DNA of 64,000 nucleotides from Candidatus Uhrbacteria bacterium GW2011_GWE2_46_68 (GTDB taxonomy: Bacteria; Patescibacteriota; Patescibacteriia; UBA9934; GWF2-40-263). The notes under the pieces were generated by a model. The model was not told the DNA's origin, made no database searches, and was given only the letters and a program-made list of their open reading frames with translations. Shown piece by piece: positions 1-64,000 of the stretch. Within the stretch, counting starts at the first letter, position 1, and the number at the start of each line of letters is the position of its first letter. A program made the position numbers and the translations under genes. The stretch covers positions 68,775-132,774 of the forward strand of contig LCMS01000004.1 in NCBI GenBank assembly GCA_001002765.1, read 5' to 3'.

Positions 1-858
1 TTTTTCCAAGTGGTATCACTCAAGATATCAAACAGGACGTAGCCTCGCGGGTCTCCCACCTCGTTTCCTTCCAAACAAAGATGAACCGTCTGATGCGCAT
101 CTTTCCAAAGGAAAAAAAGTTTTCCCGCCACGTCAAAAAAGGTGTTTTTTATAATGGCTCCATAGCCATCTTCTTTGCCCATAATAGATCCGTCGGCGCG
201 TAAAAGTTTACTGTTTTCCCCGGGCATTTCCGCAAAAAGAATAGGTTTACCCCCGATATTCAATATTTGTCCTTGGGAATATCCTTTCGGACTCCCCAAT
301 ACACGCCCGTGATAGCGGAAGAAAAGAGTGCGATCATTTTCAAGCGGGTGTAAAGCAAGACGGTACCCAAGTCGTCCATTGATATTTTGCAGTTTATCTA
401 TCTCCATATTCGTTTCTGGAAAGGATTCGATAAGCTGCCCATTTTGATCCACTATTTTTGCATGATCTTGATCCTCAAAGACTGCCGCGAATTTTCCTTG
501 GAGATCTTGTACTCTTACGTAAATCAAATCAGACGGAACGGGGAGCGTATATTCTTTTTCATCCACAGATTCGATGGGAAGTTCTTTATGTTCGAGCAGA
601 TATTTTATTTTGTCCATGAGGACACAGACACGTTCGAGGATCTCTATCGTAGGGGTCGGTTGTGCGGTTCCTAATTCTTTGGGGTGCTTCACTCCATGCG
701 CTTTGCAAATTTCAAGCACTTCTTCCACATACGCATTAAAAAAAGAAAGAACATCTTTTGGCATGTCTTGGCGATAACTCATGGCATATTCGGCAAAAAA
801 AACATCTGGTTGAAAAGGGGGAGACGCTTGGTGTTCTCGAGAAGAAAAATTGAACATA
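1..858 (-). CDS. hypothetical protein (partial; N-terminus at 858, runs off window start)
   Basis: Reverse-strand translation from ATG 856-858 gives a continuous protein-like ORF (MFNFSSREHQASPP...FAEMPGENSKLLRADGSIMGKEDGYG...) with no stop before position 1. It is absent from the ORF track only because it is incomplete. No confident family assignment. Confidence 0.45.
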
Positions 859-4784: not shown

Positions 4785-5948
4785 TTGAATATCTTTCCTC
4801 TTTTCCTGTATGCTGGAAGCATCTTGAGTTATTTTTTTATGAAATCACATTCTTCATTCGTCCTATTTGCTATTGTTTGCGGTATTGTTGCCGTGTTTGC
4901 CTATTTTTTGGTGTTCTGGTATCCGATGATTGCGGATCAGTTTGTTCAAGATAGGGAAGCGGAACAGACACCGGTCATAGAAACACAGGTGGAAGATATC
5001 GTGGAAGAAACAGCAGCAAGTGTTACTGATCTTTCCACATCTCGTTTTTTAAATCTCAAAGTCGTTTCTGTTTCCGAAGTGTCTGACGTGAGTGTTCGCA
5101 TGCGCACCGGATGGATCGAAAATCCCACACGCAGTGTGAGACAAAGCGTGCGCATTCACGAGCCCATGAATCTGGAATCCGAAACCTATCCAGTGGTGAT
5201 TTTTGTTCCTGGAGGTTGGAACAATGGTCGTTCGTTTGATCAGGGTCAGGATGGAGATTATTCCGACGCGGATTATTTGGCTGCCGAAGGTGTGATTGTG
5301 ATCACTTATTCTCCTTTGGGAACCGAGGAAGATGACCCCGAGCCTTTGGATTATGAAGGTTTTGCTGATCAAGATGGGCTCGCTGCCATCATCACAGCCG
5401 CTAAACAACTTACCAATGTTGATTTGGAACAAATCGGTGTGGCAAGTTTTTCTTATGGCATTACCGGTGCCGCGGGCGTTCTCTCACGCTATCCTGATTT
5501 GGGAGTGAAGTTTTTAGTGGATTGGGAAGGGCCATCGAGTCGAGAATATACGACCGTCGGATGCAAGGAGCATAAGCCCATGCCCGAGGGCGAGGAAGAT
5601 AATCGTCTCACATCTATTTCTTGTGAGGATGAATCTTTTTGGAGGGAACGTGAAGCCGCTTTGATGATTGCGACCGCCGACATAGAATATTATCTGCGCG
5701 TTCAATCCATCAAAGACCATGTGCAATCCACCTATGGGCACACGTTGGAAATGGTATCTGCCTCGGTGGGAAATATTCCTTGGGTGCGCGTCAATGACGG
5801 GGCAGTGAATGCAACCTATGAAACTGATGACGACATTCCTACGGTCTCTGAAAGTCCATCCTATTTTACCTCTTACGGTTTGTCTTTTATCTTAGAGTTG
5901 ATTGCCGCCCCTTCTACCGCAGCTGAATGGTTTGAGGAGGAGAGGTAA
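4785..5948 (+). CDS. membrane-anchored hypothetical protein, possible alpha/beta-hydrolase (esterase-like)
   Basis: N-terminal TM helix; VVIFVPGGWNNG and VASFSYG (GxSxG-like nucleophile elbow) suggest a hydrolase fold. Weak. Confidence 0.35.
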   Translation: MNIFPLFLYAGSILSYFFMKSHSSFVLFAIVCGIVAVFAYFLVFWYPMIADQFVQDREAEQTPVIETQVEDIVEETAASVTDLSTSRFLNLKVVSVSEVSDVSVRMRTGWIENPTRSVRQSVRIHEPMNLESETYPVVIFVPGGWNNGRSFDQGQDGDYSDADYLAAEGVIVITYSPLGTEEDDPEPLDYEGFADQDGLAAIITAAKQLTNVDLEQIGVASFSYGITGAAGVLSRYPDLGVKFLVDWEGPSSREYTTVGCKEHKPMPEGEEDNRLTSISCEDESFWREREAALMIATADIEYYLRVQSIKDHVQSTYGHTLEMVSASVGNIPWVRVNDGAVNATYETDDDIPTVSESPSYFTSYGLSFILELIAAPSTAAEWFEEER

Positions 5949-7290
5949 TATGTCTCTTTTTCGATCAAGTTTAGAATCTTCTCCGTCTGCTATCCCTGCG
6001 GAGGTAGGGGGCCAACGTACTTCAGCAAACCTAAGCGAGGCCATCATGGATTCGGTTTCAAGTGTCCGTGATTCTTTGCCAAAAGAACACCGCACACACT
6101 TTGAAACTCTGCGACAAGAGATCATTGATTTTACAAAAGCTCATGGGATTCCAAAAGAATCTCTTGGCAGTCCCGACCTCCTGCGCGAGGCTACAAAAAA
6201 ACTTTCTACCCAAGACCTTGAGCGACTTGCTCTCCTTCTTGAACGCTTTGAGCATCTACTTACTCACAAAGAGCCTCGTCGGGAAAAATCGGAAGCGCTT
6301 GAGTATGCCGATGAGTGGTATAACCTTTCCGAACGATACGCGTTTCAAATGAATTTTTTAAAAACACTAGGCATATACTTCCTGCATGAGAGAAACAAGA
6401 CATTCAATGAACGCATAGCAAATTTAAAGAACTTGCTTGGATCCTTATTGCCTTTTGGAAAGAAAAAACGCGAGGTGCCTTCGGCGTCTGAATCCATGGA
6501 AGATTTTTTCCTTTTGGATGTATTGGGAAGAAAGTATTCTGTTCCCACCTTGGAACAAATCGCCGCGCGTCTTTTTGAACGTCGCGAGGAACTTGAAACC
6601 AAACACGATCAAGGTTTTACTCATCTTCTTTTTGTTCCTTTTGCCGTTGAGACTGATCTTTTCATGCTTGCTTTTGGAAAATTTCTTCAAGATCGCGATA
6701 TGGAGAAAACGTTAGTGTCCCCGGTAGCTTATGCAAGTACCACTCGTTCGGTGATGTCACGCTTACGATATTTTCCGCAATCTTTTGACGCGAAAGGAGG
6801 TGATAGAGGTAAAGACAAGATGGACATTTTGAAGGAATTATCTGAACAGGCAAGCTCTTTTCTCGGGTGGAGGATCCTTCTTCTTCAAACTCCTCATGGT
6901 CAAAAAAGAGGATTCCGCGGTATCTCAAAGGATGGAGACCAAAAGAAATCATTCACCCGTCCGGAATTGGAAGTGGGGAAGACGCCTTCGGAATACCTTT
7001 CTCTCCAGAGAGACGAAACATCGCCTTATGATGGAGAATCGAGTATGGTTCTTGAAGATTGGATTTGTGCTTTTATGATTCATTATATGGAAACACGATC
7101 TTGTCTTGACGATATGGAATCCGGGGGAAATGCAGCTTCTTATTTGACAGGAGTATCACTTCCTGGGGATTTTACCGGATCTCAAATGGTGATAGCTGTA
7201 AAGTATGCACACCAAGATATCTTTTTTTATTGCCATTCTCCTCATCACAAAGATGAACAGATTGGTGCGCGTTTTGTCGTAGAGGTTTGA
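5949..7290 (+). CDS. paralog family protein of unknown function (copy 1 of 3 in window)
   Basis: Starts MSLFRSSLESS at ATG 5949, right after the upstream TAA and a GGAGG RBS. Homologous over its full length to 62365..63663 and 63675..>64000 (shared LPKEH..F..LRQEIIDF..HGIP..L..PDLLREA..L...DLERLA.LLE, LLPFGKKKR, DQGFT.LL.VPF, SPY.GE...EDWI.AFM.H, IGARF.V). Confidence 0.6.
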
Positions 7291-56388: not shown

Positions 56389-57301
56389 GGGGTCAGGTCG
56401 TGAATCGTAGTGTTCAACATTTATTTTTCTATGACAAGACCACTTCGCATTGAATATCCTGGAGCATTTTATCACATCATCTCCCGCGGAAACGCGCATC
56501 AAGATATTTATCTTGACAATAAAGATCGACAAAATTTTTTAATGAATCTTCAGCATTGCCTCCGGTCGCACTCTCTCCGATGTCATGCTTATTGTTTGAT
56601 GAACAATCACTATCATTTACTTTTAGAAACGCCTAGAGGGAATTTATCTCAAGCCATGCGTGACATCAACGGTCTCTACACTCAAAAATTTAACAAGAGA
56701 CATAAACGTATTGGCCATGTTCTTCAAGGGCGTTACAAAGCTTTCCTTGTTGAAAAGGACGCTTATCTTTTACAAATTGCTCGTTATATTGTCCTCAATC
56801 CACTAAAAGCCGGTATAGTCAATCATCCAAAAAAATGGAGGTGGAGCAGCTATTCCATTACAGCTGGTCTTAGAGAGTCTCCAACTTGGTTTGACTCAAG
56901 TGTTATTCTTGCTCTTTTTACATCAAATAAAAAAAGAGCACAAAAGTACTATCGTCGATTTGTATATGAAGGTGAAAATGAACCTTTTCTTTACGAGAAA
57001 GGAAAGGGGGGTGTGATTTTGGGTAGCCAAGAATTTGCAGATCAGATTCGGAGAGAGTTTAAAAATAAGAAAAGTTCAAAAGAAGTTGTCATTTCTGAAA
57101 GAGTGATCAGTCGTCCAAGTTTAGAAGATTTATTTTTTCAGATAGATAATCAAGAAGAACGGAACAAGATGATAAAATTAGCTAGAATAAAAGCCTTTTA
57201 TTCCGTTACAGAAATCGCGAATCATTTAGGTTTACACAGAACAACCGTCAGTAAAATTTTTAACGATAAAACATGAATGCTACGATTCACGACCTGACCC
57301 C
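56388..57301 (+). mobile_element. REPtron: IS200-like Y1 (RayT-like) transposase gene flanked by inverted 22-bp REPs
   Basis: Left GGGGTCAGGTCGTGAATCGTAG (56388-56409) and right CTACGATTCACGACCTGACCCC (57280-57301) are perfect reverse complements. The same REP occurs at 32719 and relatives at 13155, 4533/4720 and 46451/47991. Confidence 0.8.
56431..57276 (+). CDS. rayT: REP-associated tyrosine transposase (IS200/IS605-like Y1 HUH transposase)
   Basis: YHIISRGN...HAYCLMNNHYHLLLETP (HuH) and RYKAFL (catalytic Tyr region) match the Y1_Tnp (PF01797) pattern. ATG 56431 chosen over the GTG at 56410. Confidence 0.8.
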   Translation: MTRPLRIEYPGAFYHIISRGNAHQDIYLDNKDRQNFLMNLQHCLRSHSLRCHAYCLMNNHYHLLLETPRGNLSQAMRDINGLYTQKFNKRHKRIGHVLQGRYKAFLVEKDAYLLQIARYIVLNPLKAGIVNHPKKWRWSSYSITAGLRESPTWFDSSVILALFTSNKKRAQKYYRRFVYEGENEPFLYEKGKGGVILGSQEFADQIRREFKNKKSSKEVVISERVISRPSLEDLFFQIDNQEERNKMIKLARIKAFYSVTEIANHLGLHRTTVSKIFNDKT

Positions 57302-62233: not shown

Positions 62234-62364
62234 AAGAACGCCCCGTATGGGGCTTCTTTTGTGTATAAACAGGTCGCTTCCAATAGGAGGGTGCGCTATG
62301 ATGGTGTTGATCTATGAAACGTTTGTCTTTAGAGTCCGCTCCCTCCTTTCCCATTGAAATGCGC

Positions 62365-63663
62365 ATGGCTTCTTTTTCACGATCCTCTCTTCCCGAGCCT
62401 TATCGTGATCAATTTGATTTTCTTCGTCAGGAGATCATTGATTTTGCAGCATCTCACGGGATTCCAAGAGAGGCGCTTGCCAAACCCGATCTTCTCCGCG
62501 AGGCTGCAAACAAACTCCCCACCCCAGACCTCGAGCGACTAGCTGTTCTTCTTGAGCGTTTTAAACACCTCATCGTTCATCGTGAACCCTACAGAGAAAC
62601 ACAGGCTGAAATTTTGGAATACGCGGAAACATTTTATAACTTGAGAGAACAATACACACTCCAATGTGATTTGTTCAAACGTCTGAAGCTTTTACAGGTA
62701 GGGTATTTGTCAGAACCTGTAGACACGGAGCGCACACAAGGATTGTCCGCTCTTTTTCGCTCCCTGTTGCCTTTTGGGAAAAAGAAAAGGGTGCGCAAAG
62801 AGCCTCCAAAAAAAGGCAAAGAATTTTTCTTTGTCTACGGAATAGATGGAAAACAATATACGTTTCCCACCTTGGAAGAAGTGGCGGAGCGTCTTTATCG
62901 TCAACAAGAACGTTTGCATATCAAGCGCGATCAAGGTTTTACCAAACTCCTCCTTGTTCCTTTTGGCATGAGACTTGAAGATTTATTCTCTATTTATTTC
63001 AGAAAATTTTTAACCGGGTATCAAGAGGCTCATCCGAATTTCGGTCTCAAAGGAGATGGACTTATGAGCGGATATGACGATTTTGTCCATGTGGACAGAG
63101 GAAGTAATCCCCGTCTTTTTTATTACCCAAGGTTTTTTCGAGAAACGGATCATCAAGGAAAAACAAAACCTCAGATTTTAAGAGAACGAGTAGCACAAGG
63201 TGTCTCTTGTCCCGGATGGAATATCAGTCTTTTTCAACCGCTTGAACCTGATGACCTTTACTCCAAAGGGTTTGCTTCCATTAGCAGGCATGATTATACC
63301 CAAGGCAAAGAGTGCCTCCGTCCTTGTTTAAGCGTCGGTCGTCCTCCACACGAATATCTTTCCTTGCTCGAAGATGCTAAAGCAAATCCTGATTCTCCTT
63401 ATCATGGCGAAACGGGGATGACTCCCGAAGATTGGATAACCGCTTTTATGGTGCACCTTGAAGAAACAGGAAGACCACTTGATGATTTTCTAGGTCCTGG
63501 GGAATCTGAAGCTTATCTTTTGGGTTCCTTTTTTCCGGCGAATTATTGTTTTATGCCTTATGCGCGTTGGGATAACCATTTCGGCAAACCGGGAATGTCG
63601 AAGGGGACTATGCCCGCTGAATCATATGAAAATATAGGCGCTCGTTTTTTAGTGCAGATTTGA
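62365..63663 (+). CDS. paralog family protein of unknown function (copy 2)
   Basis: Start MASFSRSS (internal ATG). Homologous throughout to 5949..7290. Confidence 0.6.
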   Translation: MASFSRSSLPEPYRDQFDFLRQEIIDFAASHGIPREALAKPDLLREAANKLPTPDLERLAVLLERFKHLIVHREPYRETQAEILEYAETFYNLREQYTLQCDLFKRLKLLQVGYLSEPVDTERTQGLSALFRSLLPFGKKKRVRKEPPKKGKEFFFVYGIDGKQYTFPTLEEVAERLYRQQERLHIKRDQGFTKLLLVPFGMRLEDLFSIYFRKFLTGYQEAHPNFGLKGDGLMSGYDDFVHVDRGSNPRLFYYPRFFRETDHQGKTKPQILRERVAQGVSCPGWNISLFQPLEPDDLYSKGFASISRHDYTQGKECLRPCLSVGRPPHEYLSLLEDAKANPDSPYHGETGMTPEDWITAFMVHLEETGRPLDDFLGPGESEAYLLGSFFPANYCFMPYARWDNHFGKPGMSKGTMPAESYENIGARFLVQI

Positions 63664-63674
63664 TGTTTGATTTT

Positions 63675-64000
63675 ATGTCTTCTTTTTCTCGCTCATCTCC
63701 CGAATCCGTCCCATCTATTACTTTTCACGAAGCCACCCCCACGGAGGTGGGGGTCCAACGTACTTCGGAAATCTTAAATGAAGCCATCCTCTCTTCAGTT
63801 TCAAGTGTCCGTGATTCTTTGCCCAAAGAACATCATGGGCACTTTGACACTCTCCGACAAGAGATTATTGATTTTACAAAAGCTCATGGGATTTCCAAAG
63901 ATGCACTTTCCAATCCCAGCCTCCTTCGTGAGGTGACCGACAAACTCTCCATCCCAGACCTCGAACGACTCGCTCTCCTTCTCGAGCACTTTGAGTATTT
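63675..64000 (+). CDS. paralog family protein of unknown function (copy 3, partial at window end)
   Basis: MSSFSRSSPESVPS...VSSVRDSLPKEHHGHFDTLRQEIIDFTKAHGI. The 5' region is ~85% nt-identical to 5949-6200. Confidence 0.55.
   Translation, partial: MSSFSRSSPESVPSITFHEATPTEVGVQRTSEILNEAILSSVSSVRDSLPKEHHGHFDTLRQEIIDFTKAHGISKDALSNPSLLREVTDKLSIPDLERLALLLEHFEY

Follow-up and report, generated by a model that had tools for sequence, protein, structure and literature searches.

A 64,000-nucleotide stretch of Candidatus Uhrbacteria bacterium GW2011_GWE2_46_68 (contig LCMS01000004.1, positions 68,775 to 132,774; hereafter the window) carries three paralogous genes, here called copies 1 to 3. Very probably they are members of the target (variable-protein) family of a Candidatus Uhrbacteria diversity-generating retroelement (DGR), and the window copies themselves would be frozen, cytoplasmic binders of fixed specificity. 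Copy 1 (5950..7290, plus strand) is an intact family member of 446 residues. Its best start is the ATG at 5950, which is preceded by the ribosome-binding site GGAGGAGAGG, and its stop codon ends at 7290. Copy 2 (62314..63663, plus strand; 449 residues), the first gene of a tandem pair, is our protein P0001 and corresponds to NCBI DEP34_02800, which sits on contig DOXO01000020.1 of the Candidatus Uhrbacteria assembly GCA_003519005.1. Copy 3 (63675..64000, plus strand), the second gene of the pair, is truncated by the window end, so that only its N-terminal 108 residues are visible. An alternative start, ATG 63663, overlaps the stop codon of copy 2, and in a related locus (L009, 11350/11362-12639) the full-length protein has 425-429 residues. 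The tandem array consists of two genes, because deoxyribose-phosphate aldolase (DeoC) follows copy 3 in other assemblies.

An earlier, sequence-only reading of the window had recognized the three open reading frames (ORFs), all of which are real. It placed the start of copy 2 at 62365, which is the internal Met-18; the true start is at 62314, where the sequence MKRLSLESAPS aligns to the family N-terminus MSxFRPSxESxPS. The colinear similarity which it described over the full length of the proteins is borne out: copies 1 and 2 are 42% identical end to end (E 1e-96), and as this match spans the whole length the similarity extends beyond the N-terminus. Copies 1 and 3 share 74% identity across 89 comparable residues. 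The nucleotide identity of their 5' parts, given earlier as ~85%, was measured as 79.8% over 257 nucleotides. A hidden Markov model (HMM) of the broad family (alignment A2) matches copy 1 with E 4.5e-91, and a tblastn search of the window found no further full family copy.

The family is far from being limited to the three members originally proposed. A word-indexed search with copy 2 gave 327 clusters at 90% identity, and the best 120 of these are 40-48% identical to copy 2 and carry no Pfam domain. At least 14 distinct family genes occur in ~150 kb sampled from assemblies of the window's species. The family comprises dozens of paralogs in the very small genome of a groundwater bacterium, Candidatus Uhrbacteria. 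An exhaustive search gave 515 clusters at 50% identity. In the majority, the match is confined to residues 174-449 of copy 2. We therefore divide the protein into a helical N-terminal module, which occurs in Uhrbacteria, and a C-terminal module with a distribution across Patescibacteria. The general layout is an N-terminal helical module of ~110 residues, a linker and a C-terminal domain of ~275 residues. In copy 1, the N-terminal module is encoded at 6043..6369 (plus strand). It is the best-conserved part of the family, and this segment is ~80% identical to copy 3 at the nucleotide level. The C-terminal module of copy 1 (~265 residues) follows at 6496..7287 (plus strand). In copy 2, the corresponding segments are 62362..62691 (plus strand; residues 17-126, with helices at 28-47, 58-65, 70-89 and 97-123) and 62821..63660 (plus strand; residues 170-449). 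With one exception, the conserved blocks listed in the sequence-only reading all recur in our 44-sequence alignment. The exception, LLPFGKKKR, belongs to an insertion of ~40 residues between the modules (about 6400-6500 in copy 1 and 62700-62830 in copy 2), which among the 22 displayed rows of that alignment is limited to copy 1, copy 2 and protein P0002. This insertion is also the least confident part of the structural model described below (predicted local distance difference test, pLDDT, 64-77).

An AlphaFold model of copy 2, computed from an alignment of 136 diverse members, reached a mean pLDDT of 91.3 and a predicted template-modelling score of 0.85. In copies 1 and 2 the C-terminal domain is predicted to adopt a fold resembling that of C-type lectins and of formylglycine-generating enzyme (FGE), although the structural match is modest: Foldseek comparison of the model with PDB gave no match below E 1. 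Four residues (P216, Y270, K285 and E372) are invariant across the 136 members and several polar residues are nearly so; copy 1 keeps all four, as read from the three-copy alignment. No Cys or His is invariant in this set. The Pfam FGE-sulfatase family (PF03781) was not matched even at E 10, and scans of Pfam, NCBIfam, PADLOC and PHROGs as well as sequence and profile searches of PDB gave no match to the family. Identity as an FGE-type enzyme was rejected for want of conserved Cys or His. A McrC or nuclease identity, prompted by fusions to AAA_5 in distant members (see below), was dropped since the predicted fold is lectin-like. Copies 1 and 2 contain no transmembrane (TM) segment (Kyte-Doolittle 19-residue maxima 1.44 and 1.01), and by inspection, without use of a predictor, the aligned members show no hydrophobic N-terminal, signal-peptide or lipobox-like stretch.

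The C-termini were examined because of the lectin-like fold matches. Over the last ~45 residues of the 44-sequence alignment, fixed positions are interspersed with hypervariable ones (FF.S..VP.A.W.R..R.A.L....P......IG.R.SV.V). Lys, Glu, Gln, Met and Trp account for 4% of the residues at the 15 hypervariable columns and for 22% overall. Many paralogs have a common 3' scaffold of ~115 nucleotides in which the fixed codons do not differ even synonymously, while the interleaved hypervariable codons have the form NNC or NNT. This pattern is the signature of adenine-specific mutagenesis of AAC and AAT codons. In a DGR, the transcript of a template repeat (TR) is reverse-transcribed with errors only at adenines, and the variable repeat (VR) of a paralog is replaced by the cDNA as long as the paralog retains a matching scaffold and a 3' initiation of mutagenic homing (IMH) element.

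When JGI metagenomes were scanned for the scaffold pattern, 29 loci were obtained, in two of which a second match lies 463 nucleotides downstream of the first. A scan of the metagenomes with a guessed template, having A at every variable position, gave no match, the guess being wrong at several constant positions; viral contigs scanned with the general scaffold pattern gave none either. Locus L025 shows the complete cassette in the order: 3' end of a family member with the VR, structured spacer, TR, a bAvd-like gene on the opposite strand, and reverse transcriptase (RT). All differences between this VR (positions 491-607) and the TR fall on template adenines. TR and cassette VR have the element GGGGTGCGGTCTTCGGTG in common, beyond which the VR continues with GTGGTTTA and the TR with AAGGTTCAAG. 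The same arrangement is seen in the other best-matching VRs, and by its position GGGGTGCGGTCTTCGGTG is a candidate IMH. The bAvd-like ORF between TR and RT (114 residues) matches PF22296 over profile positions 5-106 of 107 with E 4.4e-8 and 34 bits, the curated cut-off being 40. Both halves of the RT ORF match RVT_1, and the motifs IGNVTSQIFANIYL and YLRYGDDF (IGNVTSQ, YGDD) are present. Relatives of the RT at 45-57% identity are annotated RTs from Patescibacteria wherever the source is named; its protein cluster includes DEP34_04690 and DEP34_04685. An identical cassette, its TR included, is found on contig DOXO01000028.1 of GCA_003519005.1, the assembly that also contains copy 2; there it is flanked by pheS and pheT.

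The cassette has two further features. pheS and pheT, which are normally adjacent, are split by the cassette and two family paralogs in L049 (5252-13181) and likewise in L047, L048, L050 and L051. The spacer between VR and TR (L025, 611-965) folds far better than shuffled sequence (z -4.8) and contains a long, GC-rich hairpin at about 755-835 (CAAUACCAACCAUC...GGCGACGACGACGC/GCGUCGUCGUCGC...GAUGGUUGGUAUG), for which there is no Rfam match.

Comparison with the template was extended to 62 different genes of the family whose 3' ends are complete, using 86 non-A and 28 A template positions. Six genes are perfect targets, with 0-3 of 86 non-A mismatches and mismatches at 15-20 of the 28 A sites. 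About 28 genes have kept the scaffold and drifted (5-20 of 86 non-A mismatches), and the remaining genes are degenerate, with at least 22 of 86. When the six perfect targets are pooled, 101 of 168 TR-adenine sites differ, compared with 4 of 516 other sites (Fisher p 2e-69); for 25 distinct VRs the numbers are 494 of 800 and 271 of 2275 (p 3e-159). Four perfect targets come from a single metagenome, on separate contigs, three of 117-158 kb and one of 1.7 kb. The decay of the VR is continuous within this one homologous family, from 0 to about 50 non-A mismatches.

The window copies stand at the far end of this range. The VR-equivalent segments of copy 1 (7171..7287, plus strand) and copy 2 (63544..63660, plus strand) are degenerate, with 50 and 52 of 86 non-A mismatches, as is that of copy 3 beyond the window (48 of 86). 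None of the window copies has an IMH-like 3' element: GGGGTGCGGTCTTCGGTG is absent from copy 1, and copy 2 carries a faint remnant, TGCCTTATGCG..TTGG. In local alignment to the TR, copies 1 and 3 score inside the shuffle range (maxima 35 and 26), while copy 2, because of this remnant, reaches 32, above its shuffle maximum of 25. Four independent assemblies agree exactly in the 3' end of copy 2. There is no RT-like ORF in the window, no TR in the window or in the first 17 loci, and no TR-like partner for the window copies in 534 kb of related sequence. The window copies fail the VR/TR comparison and are homologues of targets, not current targets.

The age of the three copies was assessed by Nei-Gojobori estimates of the synonymous divergence (dS) and of its ratio to the nonsynonymous divergence (dN/dS). 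For the C-terminal module, dS is above 1.4 or saturated in all pairs, with dN/dS 0.38-0.44. For the N-terminal module, dS is 0.84-1.5 and dN/dS about 0.2 (0.19-0.21 for the segment in copy 1). Because dS is saturated, the recent duplication suggested by the sequence-only reading is not supported; the window copies are old paralogs, intact and under purifying selection. As dS is 0.84-1.5 even in the N-terminal module and dN/dS is only about 0.2, the conservation of this module reflects mainly purifying selection. Gene conversion had been offered as the other explanation, and the lower dS of copies 1 and 3 in the N-terminal module leaves room for some, provided that it is old. Two short antisense ORFs, taken earlier as a further mark of recent duplication, do exist: one of 65 residues in copy 1 (6058..6255, minus strand) and one of 62 residues in copy 3 (63801..63989, minus strand). 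They mirror the nucleotide similarity as by-products of the conserved N-module sequence; the ORF in copy 1 shows no sign of being a gene.

The suggestion of a tandem, lineage-specific expansion is supported by multi-copy arrays in the window and in related sequence: L017 contains two full paralogs beside two genes that resemble them just in the N-module, L015 contains three paralogs and L013 six. The six in L013 (3446-10348, a metagenome contig) are tandem C-terminal-module paralogs of 362-393 residues with 30-43% mutual identity. They come after mraZ, rsmH and two more ORFs (95 and 491 residues, no Pfam match). Uhrbacteria paralogs are set among housekeeping genes (polA-holA, mur ligases, pheS-pheT, gyrA) and have no conserved neighbour. 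A second small paralog family has nothing but the N-terminal module in common with the first. The C-terminal part of its proteins is rich in beta structure, contains repeated G..EGY motifs and has no Pfam match. One member runs off the window start (1..857, minus strand; tblastn E 4e-7, module HMM E 7e-6), its C-terminal part being different and made of beta-rich repeats. Two members in L017 (3906-5285 and 5289-6671; 459 and 460 residues, 59% identical) are in tandem directly upstream of two lectin-fold paralogs. Distant members from other Patescibacteria combine the C-terminal module with a MoxR/CobS-like AAA_5 ATPase in one fusion protein (L002, 1884-6822; L014, 2587-8238). Upstream of the fusion, both loci encode a vWA (CobT_C) protein of 660-720 residues. 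A single small ORF separates the two in L002, and in L014 three genes (DUF6922, AbiEii and a small ORF) lie between them; L002 has an AbiEii gene just downstream of the fusion.

In the window (4785-5950), copy 1 starts 2 nucleotides past the stop codon (5946-5948) of an upstream gene for a 387-residue, alpha/beta-hydrolase-like membrane protein with a hydrophobic N-terminus. The two genes are probably translationally coupled. This neighbour is not present beside the other paralogs. A gene for a 288-residue protein at 56410-57276 (plus strand) encodes a Y1 transposase domain of the IS200/REP-associated type (PF01797), annotated via its counterpart in L009/L010.

At the family level, the tests for a DGR target gave differences between VR and TR almost exclusively at template adenines, a DGR-type RT next to the TR, a bAvd gene and an IMH-like element. 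Where the sequence-only reading could not place the family, it was right that there is no curated-domain match; the family is now placed as a DGR target family with a C-terminal domain predicted to be C-type-lectin-like. No enzyme family was assigned to it. On this reading, the window copies would be former or never-targeted paralogs with fixed binding specificity, kept through purifying selection as part of a cytoplasmic repertoire of binders or sensors. The last ~35 codons of the C-terminal domain would form the ligand-binding variable region, and the N-terminal module probably docks all paralogs to one common partner. The presence of this module in two families with different C-terminal domains fits an adaptor role. 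DGR targets of Patescibacteria (the Candidate Phyla Radiation, CPR) have been described without TM segments (Roux et al. 2021, PMC8144416), in agreement with copies 1 and 2.

The scheme may be carried further to a germline-like library. Dozens of lectin-fold receptors would be kept, and the retroelement would write new specificities into the template-matching paralogs among them; decay of VR and IMH would freeze the useful ones, the three window copies being examples, the poly-G tract of the RT described below would switch writing on and off (only 9 or 12 G leaving the frame intact), and the N-terminal module would plug all of them into one partner. In this complete form the scheme is rather doubtful.

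Several observations weigh against placing the window copies in a DGR target family as frozen cytoplasmic binders. What ties them to the DGR is homology alone. The RT frame is broken at a run of 11 G in all five cassette loci read (L048, 3431; L047, 10550; L049, 10346; L050, 10346; L051, 6106), and the element may, in view of this, be inactive in the sequenced population. Members of the RT cluster imply 9 G (an intact RT of 322 residues in a related strain), 10, 11 and 13 G, which may be either homopolymer sequencing error or a slippage-prone on/off switch. Variation of the VR between assemblies was not found, orthologous VRs being identical, which at the level of assemblies is a weak test; ongoing diversification was not observed. 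Finally, we infer the ligand, the cellular location and the role of the N-terminal module.

Part of this would suit ordinary duplication with positive selection, with the retroelement irrelevant to the window genes: these copies lack a TR match, the RT frame is interrupted and VRs do not vary between samples. Such an explanation has to face the adenine-specific mismatches in many paralogs (the p-values of 2e-69 and 3e-159 above), and given the continuous decay of the VR it is simpler to derive the window copies from targeted ancestors. We consider it quite improbable. It is more improbable still that the proteins are isoenzymes with an FGE/EgtB-like catalytic domain at the C-terminus. The four invariant and the nearly invariant polar residues in the 136 members would be in keeping with catalysis, whereas the copper or iron ligands of FGE or sulfoxide synthases would require an invariant Cys or His, the Pfam FGE-sulfatase model does not match, and DGR targeting together with a hypervariable surface at the lectin-fold site argues for diversity of binding over catalysis.

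The two remaining alternatives concern what the binders do and where. A role in cytoplasmic binding or sensing is favoured, an exported adhesin being the main alternative. Surface-displayed adhesins could attach the episymbiont to host cells or substrates after non-classical export, in the manner of the classical DGR targets Mtd, TvpA and LdtA. Surface-displayed DGR proteins have the C-type-lectin-like fold that is predicted here, Patescibacteria have an episymbiotic lifestyle, and a large repertoire would suit varying hosts. Attachment is reportedly the role usually proposed for Patescibacteria DGR targets, in the account of Paul et al. 2017. The aligned N-termini inspected here, lacking any signal-peptide or lipobox-like stretch, the absence of TM segments in copies 1 and 2 and the lack of secretion genes nearby speak against export, and the adhesin role seems unlikely to us. 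A refinement of the reading as frozen cytoplasmic DGR-family binders, which we regard as possible though tentative, is an intracellular, immune-like repertoire for sensing invaders. Its lectin-like domains would bind phage or host molecules and its N-terminal module would relay the signal to a common effector. The same lack of TM segments and of hydrophobic N-termini would be expected of it. In two independent loci of other Patescibacteria, the AAA_5 fusions lie near vWA (CobT_C) and AbiEii genes, the N-terminal module also heads a second family with a different putative sensor domain, and there is a precedent (Dore et al. 2024, PMC10907252). However, no effector or ATPase gene is a conserved neighbour of the Uhrbacteria paralogs, which lie among housekeeping genes, PADLOC gave no match, and no effector domain was recognized.

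These results place a hypothetical family without domain annotation (327 clusters, no Pfam) under a known mechanism, the targeted hypermutation carried out by DGRs. The full life cycle of the targets can be seen in one small genome, with template-matched, drifting and fully frozen paralogs. If the poly-G interruption of the RT is real, it would be a simple on/off control of hypermutation.

Like Mtd of the Bordetella phage, TvpA of Treponema denticola and TaqVP of Thermus aquaticus, the family has its variable region at the C-terminus, closed by a conserved last strand (here IGxRxxV). FGE-type proteins end in GFRCV. Also shared with DGRs of the Mtd/TvpA/TaqVP type are the adenine-only differences between TR and VR, an RT with the IGxxxSQ motif and a bAvd gene. 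Unlike these proteins, to which it has no detectable sequence similarity, the Uhrbacteria family has its own N-terminal helical module, no signal peptide or lipobox, and dozens of paralogs, most of which no longer match the template. The T. denticola DGR is similar in that one TR serves several scattered paralogous lectin-fold targets. Its targets are lipoproteins, whereas the Uhrbacteria proteins look cytoplasmic and belong to a much larger family, most members of which are out of the system.

Distant members also have counterparts among described systems. P-loop NTPase-fused DGR targets form category g1 (PMC5758913), which matches the AAA_5 fusions. In conflict systems of the MoxR/vWA 'ternary' and STAND types (Kaur et al. 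2020; Dore et al. 2024, PMC10907252), the sensors that are diversified by DGRs likewise combine a lectin-fold variable domain with the absence of export signals. A further parallel to the MoxR/vWA systems is that the distant members have AAA_5 fused to them and vWA proteins in their vicinity, although no effector was identified at L002 or L014. The Uhrbacteria paralogs, including the window copies, differ in having no ATPase, vWA, peptidase or TIR partner nearby, and a link to the conflict systems can be drawn only by analogy.

Close counterparts are also the DGRs of CPR bacteria (clade 2 of Roux et al. 2021; the 'CPR set' of Wu et al. 2018), which are also cell-encoded, come from groundwater and have targets without TM segments or recognizable domains (PMC8144416). 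Roux et al. 2021 raised the question of whether targets without membrane signals are truly cytoplasmic, and what they bind; the present family offers a tractable case. According to Wu et al. 2018, one target is usual for CPR DGRs, and the maxima anywhere are eight in-cassette and seven non-adjacent targets. Here, a single metagenome has at least four perfect targets, each on a contig of its own, together with many decayed ones, which runs counter to the published single-target generalization for Patescibacteria DGRs. The element may already stand in published DGR tables; what we describe is a system of a kind already known, in an unusually expanded form that had no annotation before.
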